NCBI RefSeq assembly: GCF_965363235.1
Contig: NC_134847.1
Coordinates: 63,980,144-64,044,143 of the forward strand
Source: Mytilus galloprovincialis
Lineage: Eukaryota
Direction: 5' to 3'
DNA: 64,000 nt
Positions 2,811-59,478 of the stretch are shown piece after piece. The translations under genes were made by a program, and so were the position numbers. The notes below the pieces were generated by a model. The model worked only from the letters and a program-made list of their open reading frames with translations. It did not search any database and was not told the origin of the DNA. How positions within the stretch are numbered: position 1 is the stretch's first letter; every line of letters starts with the position of its first letter.

Positions 2811-4000
2811 TGGAGAATATATAGTATGTAATTTATTTAGTTACATACATTGCCTATAGGTTACAAAAATACATGAGAGAAGGAAAACAGAGGCGAAAGA
2901 TACCAAAGGGAAATAATTCAAACTCATAAGACAAAACAACTGATAACACCATTGCTAAAAAAACGACAAACAGACAAACTGACAAACAGCAGTACACAAA
3001 ACACAACATGAAAACTAAAAGCTGAGCAACACGAACCCTCCTAAAACTGGTGATGATGTCTGGTGCACCGTATTAAGGGTACGCATATCCTGCTCAACAG
3101 CAGCAAATAAATTTCACAAGTAGCATCCGATTCCGTAGACTATCTTGCTATTTTGTTTGAGTTTAACTGTAAATATAGATAAGAAGATGTAGTGTGAGTG
3201 CCAATGAGACAACTCTCCACCTTAGTCACAATGTATAAAAAGTTACCAATTAAACAACTCAAACACGAAAACAAACATTCTGATCTATATTAAACAAAGA
3301 GATAAACACATATGAACCACACCAAGAGACACCACTAAACAACAGTTTCCTGACTTGGGACAGGTGCATCAAACAGATGTGCTCATAAAACGCATATAAT
3401 TGTGAATGTCAAAGAACATTTTGATTAACTGATAATAAAAAAAAACTACCGTTCAAATTAGTTTTGCTTTATTTTACGAAAGCCCCATGTCTTATATATT
3501 GTATTCTGATTATGAAACTACTGCTCTGAATGTAAAATGAACATTTCCAACTGTTTATATTCATAGCGGGCGATTATTTCAATATTAAAGTTGTTATCCT
3601 TATGCCAGCAAATTAAAAGTTTGGTTGATTTGCCTGCTTTTTTTGTATAGATATTTGCTCAAGAATTGTTATTAAGATTGACATCTGCGGTCAATACATA
3701 GGGGCTTCAGCTTGTATACATTATACTTATAAATGTTTTTGGAAGTTAAGCAATGTATACAAGTTGAATCCCCGCCTATCTAGTGGTTGCAAATGTCAAT
3801 CTTAATTACATTTATACAGCCAACCAAACCTTAAACTTGTTAGCATTATGATAATAGCTTTAAGCACAGGAATAATATATTCTAATTAGTTATCAAAGGT
3901 ACGAGGCTTATAATTTAACACGCCAGACGCGCGTTTAGTCTTCATTAGTGACGCTCAGCTCAAAATAGTTATAAAACCAAATAAGTATATACGTACTTAC

Positions 4001-4111
4001 AAACGACATATGACGTGATGCTACCCAGTCCAGGGCTATGTAAGCAAAGAATGATGGATAGATACTCCAAAATAGGTTGTAGAAAAAATGCCACTCAAAA
4101 TCAGAATTATC
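4001..4111 (-). CDS. HHAT-like exon 3: DNSDFEWHFFYNLFWSIYPSFFAYIALDWVASRHMSF
   Basis: Acceptor tatttcag, donor gtaagtacg; DFEW(S/H)F(W/F) motif of HHAT. Confidence 0.5.
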
Positions 4112-5216
4112 CTGAAATATAGGTATTCATATGAAACTATTTGATATATGTACAGTCATAAATACAGCATAGACCATTCTCGTACCAACCAATTTTCATG
4201 CATCTGATAAGGTCGTTCATTTTTTATCGATTGTTCCGTAATGTTAAGCTATAATTGTTAAGTTAAAATGTTTTTATTTAGAAATCTTAACATTTGCCTT
4301 CATTCTGCACCTGAATTTTGGTTTTAAGCCTTAAAGTGTTTGGTAAACAGATCTGACTTACAGCCGATTGATTTGAGTGTGTAGGTTAAGATAATATAAA
4401 TAGACATGATAGAAGTGGTAATTGGTTTATGTCATATATTGTCTAATGTAAAACATATAGTTTCTTTAAAGTCTTATTTCTTGTGAGAATATATATTGGT
4501 AAATGACTTACGAAATTGGAAGTAATTTCGTCGAAAATAATTACGCTCGCCGGCAATCATGCCTTTGTTGACTTTTACTGAGTAACTGTATCACAAACGG
4601 CTATGCATCGATTGTCGATGTCAAAATGTTTGCTCTTTTCAGTGGTAATTTCTTGTTACTTGGTACAACTTAGTATTTACTTTTTACATATCATGCTAGC
4701 AACACGACAGTCGCCATTGGAACAGGAACTGCTTTATCTTGGTATCCAAGCTTCTAGTTATCCGGTTTGGATGATTGTTTTGCTCAATTTTTAGTTTTTC
4801 GTGTAATATTTTTAAGACTTTTGTGTGTTCTTTTTCTGTAGTCATGGTATTGTTGGTTCTTCTTTGACGGATGTTGTTTGATTGTCTGATTTATAGCTTC
4901 TTATTTTCACAGGTATTTTAAAAAAAATATACAAACACTGACTTCATGGTACTTGATTGATTGAGTGCCTGATTGTTCTGGCTTTTCTTGCTAAATGTCC
5001 TGTGGCATATTTCCCATGCACATTCAAGAAGGAAACAAATAAGCAATAAATCTTATATATAGACCTACAACGATCGGAATCAAGGGCGGAAACATAATGC
5101 CAGAAGAAAAGTTACAAGAGAGTAAAAGATAAAATTTATCAATGTTCTGTGTCCATCGAAATACATTTGTAGATATAAAAAAATGAAGCAAAAATGATAA
5201 TAAAGAGCAAACATAC

Positions 5217-5281
5217 CTTGCCTCTCTTAATGAAAGCCCATCCAGATTGAAAGTCAATCCCACCGAAAAAGGCACCATAAT
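5217..5281 (-). CDS. HHAT-like exon 2: (N)YGAFFGGIDFQSGWAFIKRGK
   Basis: Acceptor ttttaag and donor gtatgt; phase continuous with exon 1; FGG motif as in HHAT TLFGGLKKDATDFEW. Confidence 0.45.
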
Positions 5282-6027
5282 CTTAAAATGGGATAAAATG
5301 TAAGTCAAACATTTGTTTTCAAATAACATTCATAATCAAGTAAGTGAACGAATCGTTTGAGTTGATGGCTGATATTTGGTTGTTTTTATTCAACTATTTA
5401 TACACATGTACGTTGTTTATACTCGGTATGGACGCCTGTCTATCGTCAAACTTTCGGATTCTGCCTCCTTTTGATTTTTTATCGTTTAATAGACGTATCG
5501 TTGCTATTCAACCCCCATAATTCAATTGTTTTGTATGACCACCCTTTTGGAGCATCTTATATCACACCCGGATTTACATTTATGTTATAACGTGTAGCCT
5601 AAAGCTTTCATTGATATGGGTTGGTTTTTTTTTTTGCAGACGTTTTTTTCTTGTTTGTTCCTAAAGCTTTCTCCTTACTTTTGATTTGTTTCCTTAGTAA
5701 CCTGTCGTTTGGAATTTTAAGGATTTAAATACATGCAATTTGCAACAATATTGACTTGAAGAATGAAAATCTTAAAAATTTAAATGCAAGTAACACATTT
5801 TTTTTAGTTAGATACAATATTTACATGAACATGATTGTATCGAATTACATATACAGCTTAAACGATTTATTAAAATAATGAACAAATAGTACAAGCAAAC
5901 TAAAATTAAATCTAGGGAATCAATCACATTAAGGGGCAACTGTTAACATTTGTTAATTTCATATACAGTTATTAGTTTTTTGAAGGGCCTCCTTGTCCGA
6001 GTTGTCTAAGAAGTCTAACTATAGTAT

Positions 6028-6188
6028 TCAGGGGCGGATCCAGCCATTTTAAAAAGGGGGGGTTCCTAACCCAGGACAAAGGGGGGTTCCAATTACATGT
6101 CCCCATTCAAATGCATTGATCGTCCAAAAAAAGGGGGGATTCCAACCCCCGTAACCCCTCCCCCCCCCCCCCCCTTGGATCTGCGCCT
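6028..6188. mobile_element. MITE, G/C-homopolymer-core family (termini ggcggatccag...ctggatctgcgcc), copy 1 of 4
   Basis: Imperfect terminal inverted repeat, internal poly-G/poly-C tracts and aaaaagggggg blocks; related to 14455, 39248 and 45400. Confidence 0.6.
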
Positions 6189-6375
6189 GGTATTGTACCA
6201 CTATCCTGTCAACACTGAGGTTGCGAGTTCAAATCCAGCACGTGGCAGGTGCGCTAGACGCAAATCTTAACTGACTGAAATTGTCAGTTTTGCCGAAGGT
6301 TGGTGGTTCTTTCCGACTTCCTCCACCATTAAAAATCAACCTCCACGAAATAGCCAATAGTGTTAGAATATAATA
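6189..6375 (+). mobile_element. tRNA-derived SINE (B-box-like gagttcaaatcc)
   Basis: caacactgaggttgcgagttcaaatcc...ttaactgactgaaattgtcag... shared with 62145-62410 and a fragment at 23640. Confidence 0.6.
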
Positions 6376-6702
6376 CTGATATATAGTCTTTGATCTTATT
6401 ACATTGAAACTTCACAATTACTAAAAAAAAACCCACATAGACTCGGAGGACATCCATACTGCATAAACAGAAGATGAGAAAGTAACCCGACTAATCCACT
6501 CGTTATATTCCGACTCACTATATATAATACATCGCTACATTCCCTCGAGAGTACACTGGCCGATAGAGGGCGCTGAATCATTCGCGTTAACAATCAAAGC
6601 TGAAAGAGAGACCAACACAACAATTGAAACAGACCAGAAAACGACAAAAGGACAAAAAACAACATACAAAACGCGCAATATTTCGAACTAATCTTTACTT
6701 AC

Positions 6703-6835
6703 TGTTTGATGCCATATACACACAGTATGTAATGTATGCCACAACAGATATATGTACACTTATGTAGAAGTAGGTCTCCCAAGCTGGTAATATCATCCAA
6801 GGCTTTTTAGTATTAGTCTTTTTCTTGGACTCCAT
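6703..6835 (-). CDS. HHAT-like exon 1 (start codon): MESKKKTNTKKPWMILPAWETYFYISVHISVVAYITYCVYMASN
   Basis: ATG at 6833-6835 (minus); donor gtaagt at 6702; resembles human HHAT MLPRWELALYLL... Confidence 0.45.
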
Positions 6836-9399
6836 TTTAATTAAATTTCTAAAAACAAATGTTCTAGTATATCAATAACATGTGTTTTCTACCTAATTAC
6901 AATGTACAAATAATCATTAGCATGTTATTTCGTTTTTAAGAAGAAAAAAAAACATGTTCTTTTAAAGCTTTAAAGTACATATTCATGTAGTAAATATATA
7001 TTTATTAAAGTTTAATGAACTTTTTTTTATATCGCTATATATGTGCATATATGCAGGTATTTGCAGAATTCTAGAAGTTTTTCGACAAATTACAAAAAGG
7101 CCGAAAAAAAGAAAAAACATTATTTACCTTTATAGACTTTTTGTACATTTTCCGCAATTATATACTGAAAATTTAACTATAAATACGGTATGAGAGTTTG
7201 TACACAAAATATTTAAGAAAAAGAACTGTTATCTTTAGGGACACGTACATTGGTAAAATTCCTTGTATCATTATCTTCAACAATATTAAATAATGATGTT
7301 TTGTTGGTCTTCAAACTGTATTCTTTCGAGTGCCAATGATGACTACTTATATAAATATAAACGAAACACGCGTCTGATGTACCAAATGATAAACCAGGTC
7401 TTTTTGACGTGTTTTTACACTCAAAGATTATATGCCATTATTGGTGGTCGTTTCGTCCCCGGGAATATTTTCAACCCAGCAGTAAGCTTTATTGTGTTTT
7501 CTATATCCTAATTAATCACTTCAATTTTAGGTTTTGCTGTATGTAAACATCCTGTGTTATTGGTCTGTCTATTTGTTGTATAACTTTGATTTGAAATTAG
7601 ACCCAAAAAAAAGACTTGCAGTGAGATTGGTGTTTATATTTATTTTTATTTATTTTATTTATTTTTTTTGACTTTGAGATAAATCAGCAATTAAAGCGCT
7701 GTTCCTTTGCTTTTGTGTTGTTGGTTTTTTCTTCTATGAATGGACTTTAATTGTGTCGTGGACGGATGGATATCCCATATACTTTTTTTTTATCAAATGA
7801 TAAAAGGGTAGAACGTTAGTCAAAGTTTAAATTTTCTGTACAAATGTTTTTCATTGAGAAAAATATAAGTTACGTATAGAGTACCTCGTGTCACTTATAT
7901 TATAATCGTTATCTATAAGTAGAACGGAAGTTCTTTACATTACAGGAAAAGATCCATTCACTTATATGCAGCATCTTCTTCCTAGTAGCTTACTATCGTT
8001 TTAAAGGGAATTTGATTCAACATTTTCATGAATGACAAGTTGAAAATACCCTAAAGACTTTGGTACGTGAGGAAACGAAAATCAACACCAGGAGGACAAT
8101 TTATATACAGCACAGCAAAGAGACAAGACATATACATTGACAAACATGATAAAGTATTGGAATCAAACAAACGAATCATTTTTGGGAACAGAAAAGAGAA
8201 TATACTACTACACCCACATCGTTTTACAAACTTTTTTTGAAAATGGTGTTTGGTAAACGTAACTAAGTTTTCAGTAGATCATATGAAAGTTTACCTTTTG
8301 TGGCACTCTTTTTTATAACCGTAAATCGCAATTTAAAGTAATTTTAGTAAATCAATATTAAAAGCTAGAATAACACTGCTACACAAGCAAATGTGTTAGT
8401 CTGGTTATATTCAGAATGTAGAGTTTTCAAGTAAGGATAGATTTATAGTTTCAGATTTATAACCTATCTCAGAAAGTTAATGACAATTACTTACCATCGG
8501 TGATGCGTGTTGATATACCTTCCTGGGGTGATTACGTGTCACTGTAACCGTGATCAACACTTAAAGATATTCGAATTATCCATCATTAAAATGATGATGA
8601 TGAGGTGGAAGAGGAAGAAGGAATATGAGGTGGGGAAGGGGGATGAGGAAGAGAAGAAGTGGTATCATTGTCAAGACAGCTATTCCTATCGACCAGAGTT
8701 CAAATGACAAAACAAATATAGTTCCCAGTACGGCTTTCAGCGATGAAAAAACTATTAATACCGACATATATCTAATCTTTAAAAGGCCCAGACACGAAAT
8801 ATGAAGAGCTACTTTTCAAATCGATTTAACATAGTAGTCTTGTCGTGAAAATGATGGCAATGGTGACTTTTAACTACCATAGTCTAATTTGCCAATCTTC
8901 TCTGGTTATATTGTTTGTCCTTTTTGGTTTTAACAGCTCTTCAAATAAAGTTTTGGATTTTCAAATATTTTGGCAACGAGCATCACTGAAAATACATTTA
9001 TTGTCGAAATGCGTATCTGGTGCAGTAAAATTGTTACTGTTCATGTTAACACATGTAAATGTATATTCAGGAAGATCGATATGAAAATAAATCAAAGTTG
9101 TACGAAACAAACATACAGAGCCGGATTTGTAATGTGTGAGGAAACAGTCCGCAAAACGACATATCGCACTACTCGGACACATTAGTTTGGCTCCAAGTCA
9201 ACCATGCAGTCTTAATCTTGTATAACTTATGTTTAGTGGAGAAGCAGCAACATATGTATCGCTGATTTAAACCGACTGGTATAATGATATCTATAATGTA
9301 TGCCTCTAGAAGAAAGCTTTCCAAAACATAATCGAAAAATACATAAGTGATTCATAATTTAGATATACATATAATGAAATCATTTTTTTTATATAAATT

Positions 9400-9830
9400 C
9401 GACTCCGTCGCTTCAGGATAGTAATACAAAAAGATCAATAATTCAGAAATTGAATGGAACTTATGTTTACTAGATCAGCAAACCGACCTTTAGATGTAAA
9501 GATAATGAAGGCATTTCATATGACGTCTATAAACAACTATTTGATTCACTTGTGAGTCCTATTGATGAATATGGTGACACGATTTGGGAGTGCAAGAATT
9601 TTTCATTTATAAATGCCATTCAGATGAGAGCTTGTAGATTCCTCCTTGGTGTTGGTAAATACACACCAAACCTAGCTGTCATGGGATACATGGGTTGGGT
9701 TCCAATTTACAATACACAATGGAAAGAAATTGCAAGACACTCGCATAGAATAGTAAATACGGAGCCGATCATATTAGCACAAAATATTTATATGGACAGA
9801 TTAGGTCAATCAGAAACATAAAATTGTTCA
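9400..9830 (+). mobile_element. Degraded non-LTR (LINE) retrotransposon fragment, ORF2 C-terminal region
   Basis: ORF 9552-9821 contains IQMRACRFLLGVGKYTPNLAVMGYMGWVPI, matching the post-RT motif QNRALRxITGAxRTTPxxALxxExGxxPL of jockey/CR1-like elements. Confidence 0.45.
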
Positions 9831-11536
9831 AAAAAAAATTGGAATATCATGGTTAAAAAACAGTTCACGGAACTTGAACTGGTTGACTTTGTAATACAAA
9901 CACTAATATTAATAAAAAAAATATGTTTGTTGAAACATTCTTGTAAAGAATGTTTGATAAATATATTGATAAATGGAAAAGCATCGTTTATTCATCCTTT
10001 TCAAGACGGGCAAATGGGCGTAACAAGTTGAGAACATATAATATTTTAAGCAAGATTACGTACGTTGTTGAAAACTACTGCAAACTGTTGATGCCTTTTA
10101 GTGAAACTCCACCTTTGTGAAATTAAGATCTAAAAGGCTGGATTCTGGAAGGAATGGAAATTGGCGTAGACTGTGACATCGCTATTTTGAAGTGGAAAGA
10201 TCTCATTGCGGTAGGAAAAGTTGAAATACTTGATTACGGTATGAAACTTCAAATCGTTTGTCGACAATTTATGATTGTGAATTTCCCTAGGAATGGGAAA
10301 AACCTTAAAAAATCTGTCTAATTTGTATATAAATACATACTAATATTTGATAACATATGCAGAAGGATTTTATTAACTAATAGAGAGAAAGTGGCGCCGA
10401 AATATTTGCAGGTTTGTTTCTAAATTGTATGACAGCTTTTTATTTGTTTTCGTTCAGTTGTTTTTCTTTCTATATAGATAAAATCAAAATTAAAACATTC
10501 ATATTTATTTTTATTTAATAACATGAGTTGATGATTTTATAGTTTACTAAGATATCATTACTTGGATAACTTTCAGTTTAAAAATAAAAAGTGGTTTATT
10601 TCCGATGCTAAGTTTGGTAACAAAAATAAATCGGAAACCGACATGATAAAGATGCTTGATTTCTTAATTGACAAAATTTGTTATGCTTGGATGACGTGTT
10701 TTTCAACAAACAATCTACATTCTCTTGGGAACCAACTTTGTGCTTATTCTTTACAACATGTTCCTTTTGATGTAACGTATAGTTCAATTAACATACAGAA
10801 CATACAATTATTGTAACCCCCCCCCCCCATACACAGACATTTATTTCCTGTATCAAGACAAACAATCCTGACGCTGTTTTCCTTTGATCTACCTGTTTTC
10901 TGAGGAGTTGGGTGTTTATGGTTGTTATGCAGTATCTCTGTATTTACTCTTAACCTGGTAAGGTATTTTGTTCAATTAACTTTACTCAATCATAAAGAAA
11001 TGTATTTTGATTTAACTAGCAATGATAATTTTTGTATCAGAAATTTTCAAGATTTTTTAAAAATAAACAGACCGACTGAATTTTGTTGGTGATATTGATT
11101 ACTGGTACAGTATAAAGACCAGGATTATCATTACTCTAAAATTTTGTATACAAAAAAAAAAAGAATGTGTAACTGAAAACACGAATTCCCCTGCACAAGC
11201 TTTGCAATGAATGTAAGTTGTACGTACGGACGGTCAAGAGTAACACTAAATGACCCCTACGGCGGGGCATACACGTAAATGTTCATTATGCTATCTTAAT
11301 GCTGTTGATTTAAATTTGATAACATTGTTTTACCCTTCTTGTCTTGTTGCATTTACTTATTTAGCAAGTAAGAAGCACACTTTTTTTGTGGAAATAAGCA
11401 AAAAAAAAGAGCACTGTTTCATTATTTATGAGTTTGACTTTTTAAGGATGTTATTACTGTTTCTCTGTGTGTATGTTTTGATTGCTTCTTAGTTCATTCT
11501 TCATACAAAATGCACCATTCTTTACTTTTTTACAGA

Positions 11537-11756
11537 ATGACTTCTGTCTTAATGGTTACATTCATTATGATGTGTATGGTATGTGAGACTGTTTTTTCGT
11601 TACCGTGTCTAACAAACAAATCCAAAGAAGATTTCATCAAAGCCAGAAAAGCATTAACCAACCTTGAAGATTTCCTAAAAAGCCAAGCAAGTGCTATCAA
11701 CTCTAAAGTACAGGCTTTAGACACAGATTTGACATCGATGGAAGCGAATTTCAAAA
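11537..11756 (+). CDS. Lectin exon 1: MTSVLMVTFIMMCMVCETVFS (signal peptide) then LPCLTNKSKEDFIKARKALTNLEDFLKSQASAINSKVQALDTDLTSMEANFK
   Basis: ATG at 11537 just after ttttttacag (alternative upstream ATG at 11510); donor gtgagg at 11757. Confidence 0.6.
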
Positions 11757-12064
11757 GTGAGGATTTTTGTTTTGTTCTGCTTCGTAACTCTCTTCAAAGG
11801 AGAAAAAATAATTCATACTAATGTATTTTTTTAAATAGAGAATAAAACAACGAAATGAACGAATAATAAAAATTTGGTTAATGTGAGTCAGTTTCTCTGT
11901 TTCCACTACATTTGTACATGGCAGTACAAAAAAAAAACCGTTTGTGATATTTAACCAAAAAAATCATCCGAGTATTTGACATTGAAATGCTTGTCAGTTT
12001 TCTGTACTGCTTTATGCTTTTTTATTTAAATTGCTATTTAATATGAATTTGAAATATCATTCAG

Positions 12065-12138
12065 GGAGACAATGGAGAAAGTACAACAGCCACTGTTATT
12101 ATATTGGGGATGACACGGTTATATGGACGGATGCAGAG
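12065..12138 (+). CDS. Lectin exon 2: RRQWRKYNSHCYYIGDDTVIWTDAE
   Basis: Acceptor cattcag, donor gtaaac; CTLD N-terminal block. Confidence 0.6.
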
Positions 12139-12339
12139 GTAAACTTATGTCTATATTGTCACTGCAGTGTTTTATTTGCGGATAGAAAAACTTGAAAAAA
12201 TATTTTCTATCCGCAATTTTTTTCAATTACGGATTAATGTTGTGTTTTTATTTGTTTGACTGTAAATGTTGCGTGAAATGTTTTTGTACAAATAGCAGAA
12301 ATTATAGTTCCCATTTGAAAAACCATCTTAACTTTTTAG

Positions 12340-12433
12340 AGAACATGCCGGGAGATTGGAGGGTATTTAGCGAAGATAGATGATTCGTCAGAAAACAGTT
12401 GGATACAACAGCAACTAAAAAATGCCAGCATAA
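12340..12433 (+). CDS. Lectin exon 3: RTCREIGGYLAKIDDSSENSWIQQQLKNASI
   Basis: Acceptor ctttttag, donor gtaagt; C..GG.LA.I..EN.WI block. Confidence 0.65.
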
Positions 12434-13704
12434 GTAAGTCGAGCATATCTAGTCATTTTTACAAATTGCCTGTTTACAAAACTTTAAATTGTTCGAAAAA
12501 CTAAGGACTTTTTTTTTTTATCCCAGGCATAGATTCCCTTAGCCGTGTTTGGCACAACTTTTTGGAATTTTGGATCCTCAATGCTCTTCAACTTTTTACT
12601 TATTTGGCTTAATAAATATTTTGATATGAGCGTCATTGATGAGTCTTATTTAGACGAAATACGCGTCTGGCGTACTAAATTATAATATAGGAGGGTCTAT
12701 GTTTATGTTGAGGGCATTTCTTATAACTTGAACCAATAGAGTAATAATAAAAGCATTTAGAACAGAAATCAATTGGTAGAGTCGTTTTAAAACAGAGCAG
12801 ACATCAATCGACAACTGTATATTGTTGGAGATTGATTCATTATCTCTATATACACATTGTTGTTTTGCCTTTGTTGTTTTGCCTAGTTTTGCTGCTGTCT
12901 CATCGGCGGCTACGATCCCTTAAATTCTTTTATGTTTACCCTAAACTTTAAAAAAAAAAAATCCGTCTGAAGGATTGAACAGTTTTAGAACTGTATTGCA
13001 TTGGCTAAGGACATATTTAAAGGTTAACTGCATATTTAAACAACTTAATATTGTCTGTTTTAGTCCGAATAAAGGGAGCAACCATTTAATTCAAGGGGGT
13101 AATGGTTTTTTTCTGAGTCAGAATTTTTTTTTCCTGTAAAGCGCGAACATTTTTTTTAGTTTTTCAATCAATCAAATTATTTCTTTTCAAATTTTAATAT
13201 ATCAGTACGGGAAAAATATGTGTATTCAGAATATTTTTATTGACCAGATGATTACCCACCAGAATTTTTCTTTACAAAAGATTTTGGATCAGAATATTTT
13301 GTAGTAATTAAACCCCCAGCCCTTTTCGAAGTTTTTTTTCGTTCGTTCCCTACGTACAAGCTTTAAACTTGTGATGTAATAGCTGAAAGTTTTATTGTTC
13401 AAAGTTGGTTATTGAAGAGAGATAAATAAAGGCAGCAGTCGTATACCGCTGTTCTAAACTCAGACATCGATAGAAAAAAATAAATCCGTGATAAGCCAGA
13501 GTTTGGGACTCAATGATACAGGAACGAGTATTCCAATCTATTTTTTTAAGAGACCCATGATGACATTTATATTGAGCAAGCTACTTTTGTTTGGAAAAAG
13601 TTTCTTCCTGTACGCTCAATACCAAAACATTTTTAGCCAAAATACATTAAAGTCTATGAATATTGTTGATAAGGATAATTATGTTTCCTTTCATCCTATT
13701 TAAG

Positions 13705-13952
13705 AAAATTATCACTGGCTGGGGTCAACAGATGTTGTCAATGGTGACTGGAGATGGATATATGATCAAACTCAGTTAAGTTACAAGAACTTTAATTCAG
13801 GAAGACCTTATCCAACCAGTAATGCATACTCCCACTCAAATAACTGTATTATGATGCACTACAGCAATGGTAACTGGTTAGACAATCCATGTTCGAGTTC
13901 CTTACCATATGTCTGTGAAAGTAATTTCTGTAAGTTTTATATAGATGGTTAA
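13705..13952 (+). CDS. Lectin exon 4: KNYHWLGSTDVVNGDWRWIYDQTQLSYKNFNSGRPYPTSNAYSHSNNCIMMHYSNGNWLDNPCSSSLPYVCESNFCKFYIDG*
   Basis: Acceptor ctatttaag; stop TAA at 13950-13952 (an alternative donor gtaagt at 13931 would shorten the tail). Confidence 0.6.
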
Positions 13953-14454
13953 AGCTAACAGATAATAATATTGTTATAGTTTGTATTTTTTTGCTAGACA
14001 CATATTCAGTGTTCCTTCTTTTTACATCAAATCTCGTTGGTAAATACATCCAAAATAGAATTAAAAAATATATGACAAAAAGTACTTCAAAATGACCATT
14101 TATTACTTTATTTCTTTTTTTCTCGAGCATTGATGAAAGTCGCGCAAGAAGCAAGACATGTGCTATTCTACTACCGTCATCGTTGTTGAGATCCATAGTT
14201 GTTGTAAACTGAAATGGTATTGTCGTATGGACAATTATCAATGCATGTTAATTATCATCGTTATCATTAATATATGTTTGACATAAGAATAACTATTGTT
14301 GTCAGGAATTTTAACTTCGTGATTAAATGTCCACCCTATTTTCATTTCAGGCTTCCAATAGAAATGTAGATGTTTCCTCAAAAAAACAGATGACAGATTA
14401 AAAAAAATATATTAAAGTATCACTACGGTGCATAATTCTGTTGTTGTGTTTATG

Positions 14455-14590
14455 AGGGGGGGGGGGGGCAATGACTGACCTAAAAGGGGGCGCTCCAGTC
14501 ATGCTTCAGTGCTTCACTACATAATCAACCAAATTGTTCCCACGTAAGGGGGGCCCAGGCCCTCCAGCCCCCTCCCTGTATCCGTATACG
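14455..14590. mobile_element. MITE, G/C-core family, copy 2
   Basis: gggggggggggggcaatgactgacctaaaagggggcgctccagtcatgcttcagtgcttcactacataatcaaccaaatt... matches the 39248 and 45400 copies. Confidence 0.55.
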
Positions 14591-14929: not shown

Positions 14930-15060
14930 ATAAAAATTGAAAATTGAAATAAGGAATGTGTCAAAGAGACAACAACCCGACACCAATGGGTCTTCAATAC
15001 AGCGAGAAAATCCCGCACTCAGAGGTGTGCTACAGTTGGCCCCTAAACAAAAATGTGTAC
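14930..15060. repeat. Dispersed repeat (ggaatgtgtcaaagagacaacaacccgac... family); second copy at 16930-17070
   Basis: About 85% identity between the two copies. Confidence 0.5.
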
Positions 15061-15699
15061 CTGTTCAGTAATAATTCACGTCATACTAAACTCCGAAAGA
15101 TATAAATGAACTTAAATTAAAAATCATACAAGATTAACAAAGGCAAGAGTCTCCTGACATGGGACAGGCGCAACTTAAATGCGGCGGGGTAAACCAAGTT
15201 TTCGGAAATCTCAACCCTCCCCTATACCTAGCCAGTATAGAAAAAAACAAACACACCACAATACGCATACTTTCTATAACTATGTCATGTACTAAATTTT
15301 TTTACTTTTAGAACACTTTTGATTTGATATGGTTGCTTAGTAGTGCTCGTTGTTTGATCTTTTGTTGAGTTTCCGTTATGAGATCAATAAGGCAGTGGAG
15401 CATACGAAACAATTAAACTATCTCTGCTCATAACTACCGGTATTTCTATGTTTCTCTAGAGTTAAACATTCGAAGAAGACTTCATTTTTATCATTAAGCT
15501 GAATAGTTACTTGGCAAAAAGCACCTACTCCTTCTTACGATGTTGACCAATTATTTATGCAAATTTGTCCTTTCTGTTTAGTTTTTTACTGCCACATGTT
15601 CTACATGTTTGGCATATATACATTATGTATCAACGGGTACTGATGAACCCCTCATAAAGATTAAGAAGTTTAAACCCGCTGTATTTCTTTGCACCTGTC

Positions 15700-25302: not shown

Positions 25303-26576
25303 CTGTAAATACAATAATAGTAGAGTTATATCTATTTTTCAACTATGATACTAATGTGGATTCATTTATTTTCATGGGTACCAATTATTGTGGATTAAGG
25401 AAAACTTCCTTTTTCTTGGATATTTGATTTTGTGGTATTGTCAATTTCTTCATACAATCCTATTTCAAATTTGTTATTCTTTGAAACATTTAAATTCGTA
25501 GCTCAACAGTACCCACAAAATCCACTAAATTTAGTATCTGACGAATAATAATGAATCCACATGCACAGAAGAACAATTAGAGGAAAGTGATGGGAGCCAT
25601 CACAGAGGGCCCTGCAAGAGTTAACAATTTAATTGTGGTGGAAATAAGAAGTTATCAGTGTTATTCTATTTAAAAGTATAGCTTATACATACTGAAGGAA
25701 GAAATTTTCTGATGCAACACTTACTCATCCCAAAGGGATTAGACAAAGTTTTTGACCATGACTTTCAATGTATGTTTTTTTTTCTAGAACATAACATGTT
25801 CAAATAATGGTGAATAATGCCAACTAAACTTACAAAACTCCAAGGGGATTGAAAGTTTGGGAGAGACAAACACACAGACAGACACAAAGATCTTCTGCTG
25901 GGCCCTATTTGTCCCAATCAAAATTAATAGTGAATTTAACAAAGGGTTATAATTCTTATATGATTTGCATATCTATAAATACTTGAAGTAGATTGGTCAA
26001 TTAGGATTTTTCTCTTAGTTTACACTTCGATAAACCATGTTTCCGAAACTACTTTCGTAATCTATTCATGCGCGATACACATTTTGCAGGGATACTGGGA
26101 TTTTCGGCAAATTGAGATTTTAAAAAATAAATGCATAACAGTTGTTTCTAATCTAATGCATATATAACAAAACATAACTAAAATAAATGCACTAAAGCTT
26201 CGAAAATGTATAAAAATAAAATCAAAATAAAATTCCGCGAAACTTCATGAAGGATTTGGCGAATTTACGTCACGGCAAAAAACGACGTCATATATGAATG
26301 AAATCTTTCAAGGGAATGCTTATTTCGTTACGTGTACGCTTCAAATTCGGATAATATCTCATTAAAATGAAGTTTTGGAGGTAGGTGCTATTTTATTTTA
26401 GATTTTGTTGCATTTATCAAACATTTATGGATTTTAGAAAGTCAATATGGCGGTCAACTCCTTAGATACGACCTGTCAGTTGTGAGTGTGATGGTGATTA
26501 CAGTAGCCTTTTACACAAAAAATGTTAATAAATATCGAGAATATTTGTCTTCAGAATTATAAGGATTAAACACATT

Positions 26577-26700
26577 TTTTCTAGAGGTTATTGATGTGTA
26601 AACCGGGGCTCTTACTCACAAACTTTACATAAAAGTCCTTTGGACTTTCATTCAGTTTGTGAGTTAATCGCCCCGGTTTACACATCAATAACCTCTAGAA
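26577..26700. mobile_element. Perfect long hairpin (foldback / MITE): ctagaggttattgatgtgtaaaccggggc ... gccccggtttacacatcaataacctctag
   Basis: ~29-bp perfect inverted arms within a ~120-bp palindrome; a related end fragment (catcaataacctctagag) lies at 33790-33835. Confidence 0.8.
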
Positions 26701-27639: not shown

Positions 27640-29355
27640 CTAAATGGAAAACAAGAGGCTCTCAAGAGCCTGAATCGCTCACCTGGTAAACAATGCCTTA
27701 TTGAACATATTGAACCATGCCAGGCAAACATGTACAGCTAACAATTCTTCAATATTACAAATATATATGACTTACTGTTTATAAATAAAGAAAATGAGAC
27801 CAAAACACAAACACTTAAAACTTAGCAATGGACTGTGCAAATGAGGTCAAGTTCAAATAAAACCTGCGTAACCGACATATAGATCATAAAATATTTTCAT
27901 ACACCAAATATAGTTGACCTAATGCATAAAGTATTAAAAAAATAGACCAAAACTAAAAAAGTTAACTTTGACCACTGAATTATGAAAATGAGGTCAAGGT
28001 TAGATGACACCTGTCAGCTAGACATTCAGGGCTGATAGATCTTGACCTAATGAACATTTTTACCCCATGTCAGATTTGCTCTAAATGCTTTCGTTTTTGA
28101 GATATAAGCCAAAAACTGCATTTGACCCCTATGTTCTATTTAAAGTAAGGGCGGCCATGTTTTTTGACGGATCAAAAATCGAAGCACACACTTTGTGCAG
28201 GATAATATAAGGAACTATCATGCTAAGTTTCATCCAAATCCATTCAGTAGTTTCAGAGGAGAAGATTTTTTAAAGTTAGCAAATATGATGAACAAATTGT
28301 AGAAAATTGTCATTAAAGGACATTTACCCCTTAAGGGGTCAATTGATAATTTTGGTCATATTAACCTATTTGTAGATCTTACTTTGCTGATCATTTTTGC
28401 TGTTTACAGTTTATCTTTATCTATAATGATATTCAAGATAATGACCAAAAACTGCAAAATTTCCTTAAAATTACCAATTAAGTGGCAGCAACCCAACAAT
28501 GGTTTGTTTGATTCGTCTGAAAATTTCAGGGCTGATAGATCTTGACCTAATGAACATTTTTACCCATGTCAGATTTGCTCTAAATGCTTTCGTTTTTGAG
28601 ATATAAGCCAAAAACTGCATTTGACCCCTATGTTCTATTTAAAGTAAGGGCGGCCATGTTTTTTGACGTATCAAAAATCGAAGCACACACTTTGTGCAGG
28701 ATAATCTAAGGAACTATCATGCTAAGTTTCATCCAAATCTATTCAGTAGTTTCAGAGGAGAAGATTTTTTAAAGTTAGCAAATATGATGAACAAATTGTG
28801 AAAAATTGTCATTTAAGGACATTTACCCGTTAAGGGGTCAATTGACAATTTTGGTCATATTAACCTATTTGTAGATCTTACTTTGCTGATCATTTTTGCT
28901 GTTTACAGTTTATCTTCATCTATAATAATATTCAAGATAATGACCAAAAACTGCAAAATTTCCTTAAAATTACCAATTAAGTGGCAGCAACCCAACAATG
29001 GTTTGTTTGATTCATCTGAAAATTTCTGGGCTGATAGATCTTGACCTAATGAACATTTTTACCCCATGTCAGATTTGCTCTAAATGCTTCCGTTTTTGAG
29101 ATATAAGCCAAAAACTGCATTTGACCCCTATATTCTATTTTAAGTAACGGCGGCCATGTTTTTTGACGGATCAAAAATCGAAGCACACACTTTGTGCAGG
29201 ATAATCTAAGGAACAATCATTTTAAGTTTCATTCAAATCCATTCAGTAGTTTCAGAGGAGAAGATGTTTGAAAAATTGTTAACGACGACGACGACGACAA
29301 CGGCGGACGCCAAGTGATGAGAAAAGCTCACATGGCCTTTTAGGCCAGGTGAGCT
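27640..29355. mobile_element. TIR-bounded non-autonomous element with ~2.7 internal tandem copies of a ~480-bp unit; ends gagcctgaatcgctcacctgg ... ccaggtgagct, followed by a (gacgac)n tail
   Basis: Left end at 27676 tcgctcacctgg, right end at 29341 ccaggtgagc (inverted); internal tandem units at 27990-29290. Confidence 0.6.
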
Positions 29356-29454
29356 AAAAAAATTCTTTAAAATATATATTTAGTTTTATTGTAATATGAC
29401 TATACATGTATCAAGCATACAAACTTCTTAATTTGCTAAAAATATGTACCGTAC

Positions 29455-29514
29455 CTCAAAATGGTTGTTGAAAGCTAACTGCAGTCTTAGTCTCGCATGA
29501 TCTGATGTTTCTAC
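29455..29514 (-). CDS. MVP: MVP exon 18: VETSDHARLRLQLAFNNHFE
   Basis: Acceptor gattatag, donor gtacgg; ~ human [20 protein letters not shown]. Confidence 0.9.
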
Positions 29515-29789
29515 CTATAATCAAATATATCATAAAATTATACCACTAGAAAATCTTTCAGTCGGGTATTTTAAATTCTACATAAATGCATTCTGCATCA
29601 TTATGCAGGTAGAAAATACAAGTATACTACAATGCATCATTACTAAGAAACTACATCATTTTATCTTTGTATCAATTATCTTATTGATAATATTGGTTAA
29701 TTTGAAAATCAGTCAAAGTATTTTTATTTTGCTCTACACAAGAACAAAAACAAGGAAGATGTACTAAAGATCATTAAAAGATGTTGTAA

Positions 29790-39247: not shown

Positions 39248-39400
39248 GTGCAGTGGCGGATCCAGAAATTTTCATAAGTGGGAGCCCACTGCCTGCCTAA
39301 CAGGGGACCTGCTCCAGTCATGCTACAGTGATTCCCTATATAATCAACCAAATTTTTTCTCACTGAAAAAACCTCTAAATCCGCCTCTGATGTGGCATTA
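39248..39400. mobile_element. MITE, G/C-core family, copy 3 (cagtggcggatccag...ctaaatccgcctctg)
   Basis: Inverted termini; internal cagtcatgctacagtgattccctatataatcaaccaaatt block is shared with copies 2 and 4. Confidence 0.6.
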
Positions 39401-39714
39401 AACATTCATATATTGTACATTTATGTTTATCTAATGAATTAATTATTAAGGCAAATAATTGATATGTTATCAAGGTTTCAATAGCAATGAATATATAAAT
39501 GTATATTTTTATGGTGAGTCTGCAGTGGTACAAATTCGCAATGATTGTAGTTGTTCTAGTTGGTAGTTAACGTTGGTTTTAGTTGACTGTTAGTAGTACG
39601 TGTTGACTTAGTACGAACATGTAATAGTATGAATGGACTGGTTTCCCTGTAAAGAAAACTGAGTATGTGTTCTATAGTACAATAGTTATGCGACACAAAT
39701 CAGACATAGTAAAT

Positions 39715-40200
39715 GTAAAAGATTTGTTATATTGTCCCATACATGAATATATATGGTTTAGGGTGGGGATCTTGAGGGTTTTCAAGTTCTCAAACAGGAA
39801 GGGGTAAGGTGACCCCAGGGACTTCCCCTATATTTGTTTTGTTATATTGTACCATACATGAATATATATGGTTAAGGGGTGGGGATCTCATCGGTTTCCA
39901 AGTTCTCAAACAGGAGGGGGTAGGGGGGCTCCCCCTATATTTCATTTAATTAGTTATATTGACCCATACATGAATATATATTGTTTAGGGGTGGGGATCT
40001 CGACCGTTTCGTAAGTTCCCAAACAGGAGGGGGTGGGTCACCCCATGGACTCCCCTTATATTTCATTTGATTAGTTATATATATAGTCCCATACATTGAA
40101 TGTATATGGTTGAGAGGTGGGGATCTCATCCGTTTCAAAGTTATCAAACAGGAGGGGTTCGAGTGGCCCAAAGGACGCCACCTATATATGATATGATTTG
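39715..40200. repeat. Tandem repeat, ~120-125-bp unit x4 (…catacatgaatatatatggtttaggggtggggatct…caaacaggagggggt…ccccctatatttc…)
   Basis: Four collinear units. Confidence 0.85.
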
Positions 40201-40549
40201 CCTACATTCAGGTAGTTATTTGTGAAAATAAAGTAAAAATCTTCCAGCTACTTTAACTGACCCTTCAAAATTGAGGAAAAAAATACCCCTTCAAAGTTGC
40301 AGTGATATGTTTACACTTTAAAAGCATCTTACATGCATTATCAACATTTATCACTGAAAAGAAAATTTATACTGTGACCAGGAACATATATATTGTTAGA
40401 TATACTGTTTCCAGCTGTCCGGCACATTGTATTGGATTTTGACATTAAAATTGTCAAAAGTAATTTTGAGTTTCTGTTTGAAATATTTTCTGCTTTTTCT
40501 TTCTTTTACATATGTCTTTTGGTTTTCAATTCTAATGTTTATATTCATT

Positions 40550-41300
40550 TACCATGCATAGATGTATTTTGTCACCTGCCTGGATTCGCCAAAAACCCGG
40601 AATTACACTTATCCGCTTCCGGAATCGGATCCGAAATTGTAATTGTCTTTTCACGGCAGCCATTGTTATTGTGTTCCAATGTTGTTTTTGTCAGTCAGAT
40701 ACGATTTTACTCGTATTAACACATTTTTTGTCGGCGATTTTCTGTATATAGCTAGCGATTGAACAAAATTGACATCGCTGTCATGAATAATAATGATTAA
40801 AATAAGTTTTGAGATCGTTTATTTGGAGACTTTGGCGAAAAGGTTTGCAAAGCTATTTTTTCAGAGTGGAAGGCCCGTCGGGCGTGGCTAGTAACCAAGT
40901 CGAAAGTGGAAGGTCGCGGACCTAGGACCACCGCTAATTTGAACCCCTGCCTCCAAATTGAAAAGATACGAATTTCGTCTTCTAATTTGAAATTGCCGCC
41001 AACAGCATGAACAGTTGAACTTATTATATAATAGACTACTGACGTAGTTGTACTACGTATTGACGACAAACAATATTCCTACGACTTTTGCCATTTGGGA
41101 AATCTAAACTACTTGTCTTAAAAGATTTTCGGCGATTAAATATTTCGTACAATTGTTTTTTGACATCTTAGCCAAAAGCACAGGCGATAATAAACTGCAT
41201 AAGAATTCCTAATGAGCACTACTTCCTATGTGCAACTTCAAAAGTTTTGGGTGATTCGACGATCATTTAAGGTTTTTCTAGTCATTTTTTTTGTAATCCA
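40550..41300. other. CpG-rich, non-repetitive island inside MVP intron 4; no recognisable ORF homology
   Basis: Many CG dinucleotides (ccgcttccggaatcggatccg, ggcccgtcgggcgtgg, gtcgcggacctagg, tgacgtag...tacgta), unlike the CpG-poor surroundings. Confidence 0.5.
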
Positions 41301-41499
41301 GAATTAAAAGTATTAAAAAGGTGTTCAATTAGTTATATATAACATAGTAGCCAGCTAGATAATAACAATGGCAAGTATTTCAGCATTTATTGGGTAGACC
41401 ACAAATCTAGGGTGCTCGCATAATGCAGATTAACTGCATAAAAACTATTGATACATGAGAAAATATCTCAAAGGATGAACTTTTTTAATAGTTTGTTCT

Positions 41500-42040
41500 T
41501 ATGTTTGGCTGTAACACCACTGTCCTAGGTTAGGGGAGGGATGAGCACTCACAAACATGTATAACCATGCCACATTCTTCATGTGCCTGTCCTTAGTCAA
41601 GAACCTGTAGTTGAGTGGTTGTCATTGGTTCATTTCCGTCATATCTTTTTTCCGTAAATTGTTTTGTTGTAAATTAAGCCATTACTTTTGTCAATTGAAT
41701 TGTTTTATATTTTGCATATCAGGGCCTTTTATAGCAGACTATACAGTATATATTTTTTCATTTTTGAAGGCAGTTAATTTTAAGGGTAAGGTTGTTTATA
41801 ATTGCTAAAATCCATTTCATTTGAACATAGGTGGATAGTTGTCTCATTGGCAATCATACCACATCTCATTATTTTTATAATTGTCAATTGCAATTGATTT
41901 TTAAGTTAGCTCTTACGTTGTGTTTTTAAAATTATGCCACTGACCTAGGTTAGGGAGGGCTGAACACTCACAAATATGTAAAACCCCACCTCATTCTTTA
42001 AGTGACTCAAGTTTTTAAGTCAAGAGCCTGTAGAACAGTA
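41500..42040. mobile_element. Two adjacent copies or fragments of the ...cattggcaatcataccacatct... SINE/MITE family (41500-41640, 41815-42040)
   Basis: cactg[tc]cctaggttagggagg...cacaaa[ct]atgta...cattctt... repeated at 41520 and 41940; tail ttgtctcattggcaatcataccacatctc at 41830. Confidence 0.5.
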
Positions 42041-42168
42041 GTTGTTATTTCTAAATTAATTATCTTATAATTATCAAGATTACCACATAACAATATTTAA
42101 ATTGTTCTTTCTTCTAATTATAAAGTTTGCCACATAAATGATACAAAATTACTATTCCTTTCACATAC

Positions 42169-56390: not shown

Positions 56391-58232
56391 CTATTCCTCA
56401 TCAACTGGTTGGACAGAAGAATTCTTCCATCTCTTGTAAGCAACAACATATTCCTTTTGTGTATGCCATATCTTAAAGCATGGTTCAATGCACAAAGAAA
56501 CATTACATTCTCTACATTCGTAACAAGTCTCATGACCTGGCCGTTTGCGTTTTTGTAGGTTGTTCATATTTACATTGTTCTTTTCAGCCTCATTGCAGAC
56601 TTTGCATAAACGTGCAATGTTTTTTTTTTTGCCCACCCCTACAATTCTAGAAATGAAATGTCTTTCACTTAGGCGTTCTAATTTCGCATTTGAAGGCCTT
56701 CCTACTTTATCACTTTCTATTGGGTTATTAGATACAAGTTCAGTTATTAATTGTCTTCTGAACGCTTTATGTGTTATATTAGGGTGGTCAGCTTTATACA
56801 AAGTGTATGCATCTAGAACAGCAATAGCAAGAACATGGAAAATTACCTTTTTCCACCACTTAAATGATTTAACAACACTATTAATGTAAGTAATCATTTG
56901 ATCAGACCGATCAACACCACCCATATATTTATTATAGTAGTTCACAACACTAGGTTTTCTTATATAATCATTTGTCTCACGGTCACGACGGCGTGTGTTG
57001 ACCAAATTGGTTTTATGTATAGTCGAAAGCATAAAAACAGCCTTTCCATCAAGAAATTTGACACAATTTAAAGGACCATTACTCATTACAGAAAGATCTC
57101 CTTTATTTGTAAGTTTTTTGTCTTTCAAAAATTGTGGAATACCACGACGGTTAGACCTTACAGTGCCTGTCGCTCCTACACCTAGACCATAGAGATCCCA
57201 AAATAGTTGGGGTGATGTGTAGTAATTGTCACAATACAGATTATAACCTTTTTCATACATGCCTCGTAACATATCCATGACTAAGTCATACGTCGCGCCA
57301 TTTGAGCTTGGACCGATACCCGACTTTCCTGTATACAATTTAAATTTTGAAACATAACCGTTACTGGAGTCACTGATCATGTAGGCTTTGATTCCATATT
57401 TAACTGGCTTGTCAGGACTGTAAACTCGAAATGATAGATTACCCCTCCAAGGAATCATTCCTTCATCTAATGAAATTGATTGACCAGGTGTGTAAACTGA
57501 GTGAAATCTGTTTACAATACGACCATAGAAAGTTCCAAGTTTAAAAAGTGGGTTGTAGTTTGGTTGACCTCTAGCAACATACTCATCATTGTTGGCAAGA
57601 TGGAAGAAAGATGACATTAGGAGAAATCTGTCTCTTGGCATAGTTGACGGAAAGAATGGTGTTGAAGTGACAGGGTTTTTACTCCAGTAATCAGTCACGT
57701 CTGACTGTGACAGAATACCCATTGCAAAAACTACAGCAATGAAACGCTTCATTTCTGTGGCAGTAGTGTTTGTCCACTTTCTAAACCTTGAAAATCTGCT
57801 CAAGTTATTGTTTTTATCAAGATATTGCTTTGCGTATCTGTTTGTTTCCTCAGAAATGTTCTCAAAATCATTTTCATTGACATATAAATAGAAATAATCA
57901 GAAACGGACGCATTGTCTGGGAGGTCACACTTAATTCCTGGGGTTTGCGTAAAAGGTAGAAGTTCTGGATTTTTTTCACCCATAACCCAGTTATCAATAT
58001 CAAACAAATCATCTCTTTCAGAAACATTGTCAATATTTAGGTCATCCTCAGCAAAGTCATTTTCAGTAAATCCTTCAAATTCTTCATTTTCACTATCAGT
58101 GTCAGCAAATAGTTCACATATATTTTCAGCAATAGATGTGCTGGCTTCTGCCATTATCAGAAAGTAAACACAGAAACGCCCCCTTTTTATTTTATTTTGC
58201 GAAAAAGAAAAGATAGAAAAAAATAGCTGCAT
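56391..58232 (-). CDS. piggyBac-family (DDE_Tnp_1_7) transposase, 613 aa in the longest ORF; the likely true start is the internal Met at 58154 (MAEASTSIAEN...), giving 587 aa
   Basis: Catalytic DDD context is present (…ISLDEGMIPWRG…, …YCDNYYTSPQLFWDLYGLGVGATGTVRSNRRGIP…, …YMGGVDRSDQMI…). The C-terminal Cys-rich domain is CKVCNEAEKN…CYECRECNVSLCIEPCFKIWHT. There are no frameshifts or stops. Confidence 0.95.
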   Translation of the reverse strand: MQLFFSIFSFSQNKIKRGRFCVYFLIMAEASTSIAENICELFADTDSENEEFEGFTENDFAEDDLNIDNVSERDDLFDIDNWVMGEKNPELLPFTQTPGIKCDLPDNASVSDYFYLYVNENDFENISEETNRYAKQYLDKNNNLSRFSRFRKWTNTTATEMKRFIAVVFAMGILSQSDVTDYWSKNPVTSTPFFPSTMPRDRFLLMSSFFHLANNDEYVARGQPNYNPLFKLGTFYGRIVNRFHSVYTPGQSISLDEGMIPWRGNLSFRVYSPDKPVKYGIKAYMISDSSNGYVSKFKLYTGKSGIGPSSNGATYDLVMDMLRGMYEKGYNLYCDNYYTSPQLFWDLYGLGVGATGTVRSNRRGIPQFLKDKKLTNKGDLSVMSNGPLNCVKFLDGKAVFMLSTIHKTNLVNTRRRDRETNDYIRKPSVVNYYNKYMGGVDRSDQMITYINSVVKSFKWWKKVIFHVLAIAVLDAYTLYKADHPNITHKAFRRQLITELVSNNPIESDKVGRPSNAKLERLSERHFISRIVGVGKKKNIARLCKVCNEAEKNNVNMNNLQKRKRPGHETCYECRECNVSLCIEPCFKIWHTQKEYVVAYKRWKNSSVQPVDEE

Positions 58233-59304
58233 ATTTTGGATAACTCATTGGAAAAACAACAAAACTCATTCATATTTATCAATTTATTTTTCTTGAATAT
58301 ACCTGAAAAGCCCATAAATATGGGAAAATATCAGACGATAAATAGATTTGACAACGGATTCACATTTTGTTTCTTTGATTCACGTTTCTTTTATTTCGGA
58401 AAAGAATTCCAAGTTTTCAAAGATTTTCGAGGAATATAGGTATTAACAGCACCTAGAAAGATGGATTTGTGTTCAGGCATTATTAATTTTATGGGAAATG
58501 TGTATCCTCAAGCATGGACACTGATAGAGTTACTGAAAAAAACTATAAATTGTTGGTAACAAACTGTGCGGCAACTTTCATTTTCTCTTTCGGAACGTCT
58601 CTCAAGCGAGTAAACTTCCGGTTGATATTTCCATACAATTTATGTATTTTTACCACCAAACTTCTAAATTTGCAAAATATCAATCAAATAACAACGATAA
58701 ATTAATATTCACCTTTAAGACAATATTTTATTCTTACGGTTTTAGACGAAATCTATTTATATAATACAGGAAAGGGCGGGGCATGTGCGCGGGAATTTCA
58801 TATTTCACGTAAACTGTTTTATTTCATATTTTTACTTAAATAATTCCATTTTTTTCACAAAAGAACTTTTACACGTGTCAAAATATTCTTCTATTTACCC
58901 AGACATATAGTTTTGATAATCAAATGAACAAGAATTGAGCGAGGACGAAAAGGATTTCCCTAGATGTATTTTTAGATTTTTTACGTCATGCCAAAAACAA
59001 ATTATTTTCCTGAAAGTAAAATTAAAGTGTATATTTGTTTATTATAAAGACTTAAAATGGTTCAAATTGAATAATGGATATAGATCTGATGGCTCATTCA
59101 AATTTAAACTCGGAGTTTTGTGATTATGCGAGGATTTGAAGGTTTTTTGAAAGGTCAGAAAATTGCCAGTGTAACCCGTCAAAAGACGGGTTCCGCACTG
59201 AGAACGACGACGTCAAACCCGTCAAAAGACGGGATCCGCATGGTAAGGGTTAATGCAAAGTTGCAAAAGAAAAATTCATATGACAGTGTGAGAGAAAAAT
59301 ACTA

Positions 59305-59478
<174 letters not shown>

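Follow-up and report, generated by a model that had tools for sequence, protein, structure and literature searches.

Non-autonomous elements that bear tandem repeats have been described from bivalves, including pearl, CvA, CvE and CvG, DTC84, an element in an HSP70 intron of M. galloprovincialis and Cg_HINE, and these are now regarded as Helentron-associated elements, or HINEs (PMC7492417; PMC4067079; PMC3879986). The CpG-dense segment analyzed here, located at positions 40550-41300 of a 64-kb stretch of Mytilus galloprovincialis DNA (the window), probably forms the CpG-rich interior of a repeat copy that lies in an intron of the MVP gene, the repeat being interspersed, non-coding and non-autonomous. 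Like the bivalve HINEs, this repeat is non-coding, interspersed and often intronic, and it joins a satellite-like array to unique modules. Likewise, short inverted repeats lie at or near its ends, a palindrome stands beside one terminus, and A- or T-runs are seen at its boundaries, while a target-site duplication (TSD) was not found. It differs from the HINEs in that the unique module after the array measures ∼1.25 kb instead of ∼60 bp, the repeat unit is ∼115 bp and not ∼160 bp long, a microsatellite was not found, the stem comprises only 6 bp, and the paired subterminal inverted repeats are a candidate at P ∼0.03. Furthermore, no Helentron partner was found, and a CpG-rich core is not a described feature of those families. 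As judged from the sequence, the layout resembles that of the bivalve tandem-repeat elements, with several defining HINE features absent or ambiguous, and for this reason no superfamily was assigned.

Two other systems invite comparison. In non-autonomous DNA transposons with terminal inverted repeats (TIRs), of the MITE-like kind with hAT-like CAGGG... ends, the counterpart is found in two of the copies described below (L003 and L007), whose arms begin with CAGGGG and which carry subterminal GGAAGGTC repeats. However, there is no TSD of 8 bp or any other length, the element is longer than classical MITEs, and the window copy has no left arm and extends beyond the right one. The segment also resembles the unmethylated CpG islands and promoters of mosaically methylated invertebrate genomes, with an observed/expected CpG ratio (o/e) of ∼1.3 in a CpG-depleted, presumably methylated gene body and with ETS-like, TATA-like and TGACG motifs. 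In contrast to such islands, it is a copy of a repeat and not a unique conserved locus, and its G+C content is only 38%.

The CpG-dense segment and its host gene

A tblastn search with a human MVP sequence as the query located MVP exons on the minus strand between ∼44.3 and 19.8 kb, and Pfam confirmed the Vault domain. The CpG patch sits in an intron of ∼3 kb that has the exons 42396-42169 and 39160-39077 on either side. This intron had been numbered 4 in the original prediction; the position within an MVP intron holds, and the number is plausible. A 945-nt Logan contig over the adjacent MVP exon is 97.4% identical to the window, and its run belongs to the Mytilus galloprovincialis gill metagenomes (PMC11729891). 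The Logan contigs around this neighboring exon stop short of the repeat element.

The segment 40550-41300 contains 35 CpGs at an o/e of 1.31 and a G+C content of 37.7%, compared with a CpG o/e of 0.45 and a G+C content of 31.8% (AT-rich, eukaryotic) for the whole window and a CpG o/e of 0.34 for the MVP gene body. At the gene-body rate, 6.5 CpGs would be expected per 751 bp (Poisson P ∼4e-15). No other 751-bp stretch in the 64 kb reaches 35 CpGs, the runners-up having 27 near 58500 and 25 near 6000. The dense CpGs that had been predicted for this segment of ∼750 bp were thus confirmed by calculation. Its description as isolated holds in a relative sense, as the densest 751 bp of the window, but further CpG-normal patches lie at 25901-26600 (within MVP, o/e 1.31), 29001-29600, 58101-59400 and 3.6-14.5 kb. 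The classical vertebrate criteria for a CpG island (Gardiner-Garden and Frommer) are a length of at least 200 bp, a G+C content of at least 50% and a CpG o/e of at least 0.6. By these, the segment is not a CpG island, as its length and o/e are sufficient but its G+C content of 37.7% is too low.

The strings quoted in the prediction were located at 40613-40633, 40873-40897, 40914-40934 and 41038-41066. Both of its open reading frames (ORFs) exist, one of 108 aa at 40393-40719 (+) and one of 90 aa at 40797-41069 (-), and a Pfam search agreed that they belong to no recognizable family; none of the four local ORFs had a Pfam match. A pair of TGACGT sites in a near-palindrome had also been reported, of which the palindrome and one full TGACGT at 41040 were found, but the second site reads TGACGA. 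TGACGT is not enriched across the window (18 found vs 12 expected).

Several other features were noted in the window. The second CpG-dense patch within MVP, at 25901-26600, has 21 CpGs and two TGACGT sites at 26267-26290, and is possibly another repeat insertion. Downstream of MVP, a long CpG-normal stretch (3600-14500, o/e 0.8-1.0) contrasts with the CpG-depleted gene bodies of MVP and CDC5L, as expected for mosaic methylation. By eye, 9474-9818 (+) looks like the C-terminus of a non-LTR reverse transcriptase, and an exon at 13704-13949 (+) appears to encode a C-type lectin domain. An intact piggyBac-type transposase ORF, with 587 aa from MAEAST... and a Pfam DDE_Tnp_1_7 match at E 2.4e-82, was seen at 56394-58244 (-) in an intron of the CDC5L-like gene, and the CpG-normal zone 58101-59400 (34 CpGs, o/e 1.01) lies directly 5' of this ORF. 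Around it, no clear inverted repeats flanked by TTAA were present; going by its sequence, it may represent either an active element or a PGBD gene that has been domesticated. Finally, 1-1380 appears by eye to be a tandem array with a period of ∼27 bp (9-residue motifs such as SYIHCNCLL) that is open in several frames on both strands, and it is probably a minisatellite and not coding.

Copies of the repeat at other loci

Seven further copies were found, whose identity to the window copy is 79-90% across alignments of 600-1150 bases. They were drawn from three metagenome assemblies with mussel DNA:

ERZ6864376: copies L002, L003, L007 and L008
ERZ1283807: copies L006 and L009
ERZ964674 (project PRJEB22997): copy L005

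Project PRJEB22997 has been identified in papers as a Baltic Sea metagenome. The underlying matches are ORF calls: a protein search with the four concatenated local reading frames matched P0006 and P0007, and an exhaustive HMMER search with P0006 gave five more, P0008-P0012. Since the reading frame shifts along the alignments of P0006-P0012 with the window, the matches reflect DNA homology and not protein homology. The window copy comprises 40190-41444 and extends to the left as far as 39721 at least, with 39505 as a possible starting point.

The four copies from one assembly (L002, L003, L007 and L008) have four entirely different flanks. In L003, the end of a short-form copy is 35 bp away from a MADS-box exon of the MEF2 type (SRF-TF), an SRF-TF gene being called at 2721-2906. 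The MEF2-type region of this contig covers 2721-3296 (-), and its possible first exon, which lies upstream and starts with MGRKKI…, was read by eye. The placeable copies are both intronic, in two genes unrelated to each other, MVP and MEF2. The copy number amounts to at least six loci on the basis of a sparse sampling of ORF calls. As homologous copies occur at several loci with unrelated flanks, they form an interspersed repeat family. A self-BLAST of the patch gave no second copy inside the 64-kb window. The copies have termini in common, namely a CCCCTG end in L003, L007, L008 and the window, and the long-form end at 41444 in three copies. The possibility that L002 represents the orthologous MVP intron was considered and rejected, as the divergence of its right flank begins at exactly the base where that of L009 begins, and the three flanks are unrelated.

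A transposable element had been among the candidate explanations put forward for the segment. This was right in kind, since the segment is part of a multi-copy interspersed repeat, while the qualifications "young" and "5' region" are conjectural. A match to a known repeat consensus, which had been named as refuting the prediction, was found in spirit, through the consensus of the eight copies.

The CpG-normal, promoter-like core and the lack of both a TSD and a transposase would also fit copies that are dispersed segmental duplicates of regulatory DNA of the host, such as a promoter belonging to a multi-copy gene, instead of a mobile element. However, the homology ends are sharp and shared, with inverted repeats at both ends of L003 and L007, and the common long-form terminus stands next to three unrelated flanks. 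Moreover, in no copy is the sequence followed by a conserved exon, and the intronic location of both placeable copies in MVP and MEF2 likewise speaks against duplicates, which we consider very unlikely.

The original prediction had further listed a horizontally acquired fragment, and the G+C and CpG contents are indeed locally above those of the surroundings. Against a bacterial or viral source stand the G+C content of just 38%, the absence of coding capacity and three exact-pattern scans, two of JGI metagenomes and one of 185,579 prokaryotic genomes, none of which matched the conserved patterns. A viral scan gave 19 contigs, all with non-colinear chance matches of 13-21 nt, and the homologues with a traceable source come from the M. 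galloprovincialis gill metagenomes and the Baltic Sea metagenome. With all homologues in assemblies that contain mussel DNA and none in prokaryotic genomes, this candidate was rejected, and its probability is negligible. Seven related IMG/VR contigs (L015-L017, L019, L022, L026 and L027), found via a 15-base pattern, share an exact 17-mer with 41236-41252 of the window; the match is non-colinear and consists of a palindromic CAAAAGTTTTG-type word, and it was judged to be a slightly unexpected product of chance.

The patch is probably a transposon insertion of an ordinary kind, and neither a locus-specific promoter nor foreign DNA.

The MVP intron contains other repeats as well. An abundant SINE/MITE-like repeat with the pattern …CCACTG.CCTAGGTTAGGG.AGGG…TCACAAACATGT… was observed at the following positions:

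Window: 41517-41880, 41937-42100 and 14981-15229
L003: 5204-5452
L002: 1590-1781

A further repeat lies at 39250-39371 of the same intron. Taken together with the element studied here, these copies make most of the MVP intron repeat-derived. Both SINE-like copies of this intron have lost 2 CpGs that relatives elsewhere retain, which provides a small control for the CpG analysis given below.

Short and long forms of the element

The family occurs in two forms, which in the window are represented by the following features:

39505..39525, plus strand: tentative candidate for the left terminus of the long form, TTTTTATGGTGAGTCTGCA, which resembles the reverse complement of the right terminus TTTTTATGCAGTTAATCTGCA
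39721..40198, plus strand: left module, ∼4 units of a 112-126-bp tandem repeat (∼115 bp), from TRF and a repeat-family search
40190..40549, plus strand: AT-rich, CpG-free left arm common to all eight copies, from the alignment
40550..40949, plus strand: CpG-rich core, present in all copies and forming the main part of the island (22 CpGs and o/e 1.30 in the window copy)
40935..40949, minus strand: right terminal inverted repeat of the short form, CAGGGGTTCAAATTA, an exact match
40950..41444, plus strand: extension, present in long-form copies only (window, L002 and L009), CpG-rich to ∼41270
41423..41439, no strand: terminal hairpin ATGCAG-attaa-CTGCAT with a 6-bp stem, 5 nt before the shared right end, weak at -5.5 kcal/mol
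41440..41444, plus strand: right terminus of the long form (...TAAAAA), beyond which the window, L002 and L009 are unrelated

The short form is non-coding, ∼1.04-1.12 kb long and has inverted repeats of 15-16 nt at its ends in L003 and L007. The 16-nt arms of L003, at 1643-1658 and 2671-2686, are 94% complementary; both arms are present in L007 and the right arm in L008. The homology of the window to these three copies ends exactly at the 40935-40949 repeat. The left arm is missing from the window, L002, L006 and L009, and a search for it upstream in the window gave results at shuffle level. No matching duplication of 2, 3, 4 or 8 bp was present in the flanks of the short form in L003 and L007, nor was a TSD found for the long form. 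The short form would have moved by cut-and-paste, through a transposase that recognizes the inverted repeats and the subterminal repeats.

The inverted repeat GGGGTTCAAAT is similar to the T-arm of a tRNA or to a box B, and a T-run is present at 40856-40861, as might be expected if the sequence were a pol III or snRNA-like gene for a small non-coding RNA, driven by a promoter of its own. However, ARAGORN detected no tRNA, no Rfam 15 family reached the gathering threshold (best sub-threshold hit 18 bits, E 1.7), and RNAalifold on seven cores returned a positive, that is penalizing, covariation term with compensatory changes in 2 of 68 pairs, so that an RNA gene appears extremely improbable. The string search of the literature for the TIR matched tRNA sequences only. 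A SINE or tRNA-derived retroposon, which would have a head related to tRNA, 5S or 7SL with pol III boxes, was rejected as well, given the absence of a tRNA gene (ARAGORN) and of an Rfam match.

The long form runs 495 bp past the inverted repeat to 41444, and the alignment with L009 is unbroken over 40293-41444 of the window. The 72-nt right flanks past this point are identical at 36-41 of 72 positions in pairwise comparison, which was taken as the random level without a shuffle control. The same ∼115-bp array precedes the core in L002 and L006; the L009 contig ends before reaching it. An internal tandem array between unique modules, as in HINEs, is therefore present (39721-40198; L002 and L006), although its proportions are atypical. 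A stem-loop within the last ∼60 bp, a further trait of these elements, is likewise present, as the hairpin at 41423-41439 folds in all three long copies. In L009, both sides of the stem are changed and the pair is kept (AGGCAG...CTGCCT); being a single event, this is no more than suggestive. As to paired subterminal inverted repeats of 11-12 bp, the tentative candidate at 39505-39525 matches the reverse complement of the right end in 17 of 21 columns. This alignment starts from the terminal base, its P is ∼0.02-0.03 from shuffles and from other 350-nt windows, and the window copy is the only one that reaches so far to the left. HINEs also insert into TT or T-rich sites and carry a microsatellite beside the array; T5 and A5 runs stand at the long-form boundaries, and neither inspection of the sequence nor TRF revealed a microsatellite next to the array. 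The canonical Helitron termini (5' TC, 3' CTRR, insertion at A/T) are absent, as the right end reads ...CTGCATAAAAA followed by C, T or T, with no CTRR. The long form would be a composite, being either a tandem-repeat-bearing element of the bivalve type or a short-form copy inside a second element.

CpG retention and regulatory potential

A majority consensus was built from the eight copies, with the extension based on three copies only. It has the following CpG profile:

Left arm (40190-40549): 372 bp, 0 CpG, o/e 0, with TG o/e 1.43 and CA o/e 1.29
Core (40550-40949): 433 bp, 21 CpG, o/e 1.30, TG/CA not in excess
Extension (40950-41300): 285 bp, 9 CpG, o/e 1.09
Tail (41301-41444): 144 bp, 1 CpG, o/e 0.30

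In the window copy, 40950-41300 contains 13 CpGs at an o/e of 1.32, and across the copies the core CpG o/e ranges from 0.70 to 1.36. Since the consensus has the same CpG profile, the island is built into the repeat and arrived with the insertion; it did not evolve at MVP.

Compared with the consensus, the window copy is changed at 0 of 60 CpG positions and at 5.3% of the non-CpG positions. When it was left out of the consensus, 0 of 48 CpG positions and 7.6% of the others differed, which under equal rates has a P of ∼0.02 by our own arithmetic and would have a far lower one if the CpGs were methylated. The window copy keeps all of the 24-30 consensus CpGs, a zero loss that partly reflects subfamily structure, given a consensus from eight copies. 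In contrast, L002, L003 and L007 have lost CpG positions ∼3 times faster than others (18-26% vs 5.5-8.9%), and family-wide 39 of 49 CpG changes led to TG or CA. The sequence comparison therefore indicates that the window copy lacks methylation-driven decay, which would mean either that the insertion is recent or that the core escapes germline methylation, or both. The surrounding intron would be CpG-poor because germline methylation depleted its CpGs, with the window copy having been spared. In oyster, methylation is directed mainly at gene bodies and young repeats (PMC4378273), so that recent insertion and escape are both compatible with the retention observed here.

Three motif features of the window copy bear on a possible regulatory role:

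40611..40630, no strand: near-palindrome ATCCGCTTCCGGAATCGGAT, containing two CCGGAA sites from the group of three at 40597-40624
40743..40751, plus strand: TATA-like TGTATATAG (consensus TGTATAAAG), kept in eight of eight copies
41042..41058, no strand: palindrome ACGTAGT-tgt-ACTACGT, sharing bases with the one full TGACGT (-6.2 kcal/mol when folded as DNA, z -2.49)

The cluster at 40597-40624 holds three of the ten CCGGAA sites of the window. Its near-palindrome is conserved in L005, L006 and L009 and eroded in L003, L007 and L008. The TATA-like sequence is a putative promoter element. The palindrome at 41042-41058, which corresponds to the CRE-like near-palindrome of the original prediction, is conserved in L009 and partly in L002. 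From their sequences, the ETS-like palindrome, the TATA-like box and the TGACG palindrome would be compatible with a promoter carried by the transposable element or with protein-binding sites used in transposition. As both the high CpG density and the motifs of ETS- and CRE-like type are inherited from the repeat consensus, an origin of the segment as a locus-specific internal promoter or enhancer, another of the predicted explanations, is not supported. The window copy may nevertheless have secondary regulatory activity.

The copy might have been co-opted as an unmethylated promoter or enhancer within the intron, serving MVP itself or a transcript that arises there, through the palindrome with its ETS-like CCGGAA sites, the TATA-like sequence and the TGACG motifs. 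In line with this, it retains every consensus CpG (0 of 48 changed vs 7.6% elsewhere), in contrast to the decay in other family copies and in neighboring repeats, it has three clustered CCGGAA sites, and a TATA-like box occurs in all copies. In addition, the consensus core lacks the TG/CA excess present in the left arm, which suggests a long protection from methylation in the source lineage. However, motifs common to every copy are no evidence of function at MVP, TGACGT is not enriched, and a recent insertion explains the CpG retention equally well, so that we regard co-option as unlikely. Our preferred reading of the MVP-intron patch, a copy of an intrinsically CpG-rich repeat family, implies that it should be masked and not annotated as a promoter or as foreign DNA.

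It appears rather unlikely, yet worth stating, that Mytilus possesses a repeat family carrying a methylation-resistant, promoter-like CpG island with an ETS-type palindrome, a TATA-like box and TGACG sites. If true, each insertion would be an unmethylated island and a potential alternative promoter or enhancer in a methylated gene body, with the MVP copy as a live example.

The remaining interest of the locus lies in the complete preservation of CpGs in the MVP copy and in the dual architecture of the family. The existence of a TIR-bounded short form and a tandem-repeat long form with a different terminus is a further case in which bivalve transposons and satellite DNA are linked. CpG decay differs sharply between copies, with none in the MVP copy and ∼3 times the background in others; combined with methylome data, this would constitute a natural experiment on how the methylation of intragenic repeats depends on the insertion site.
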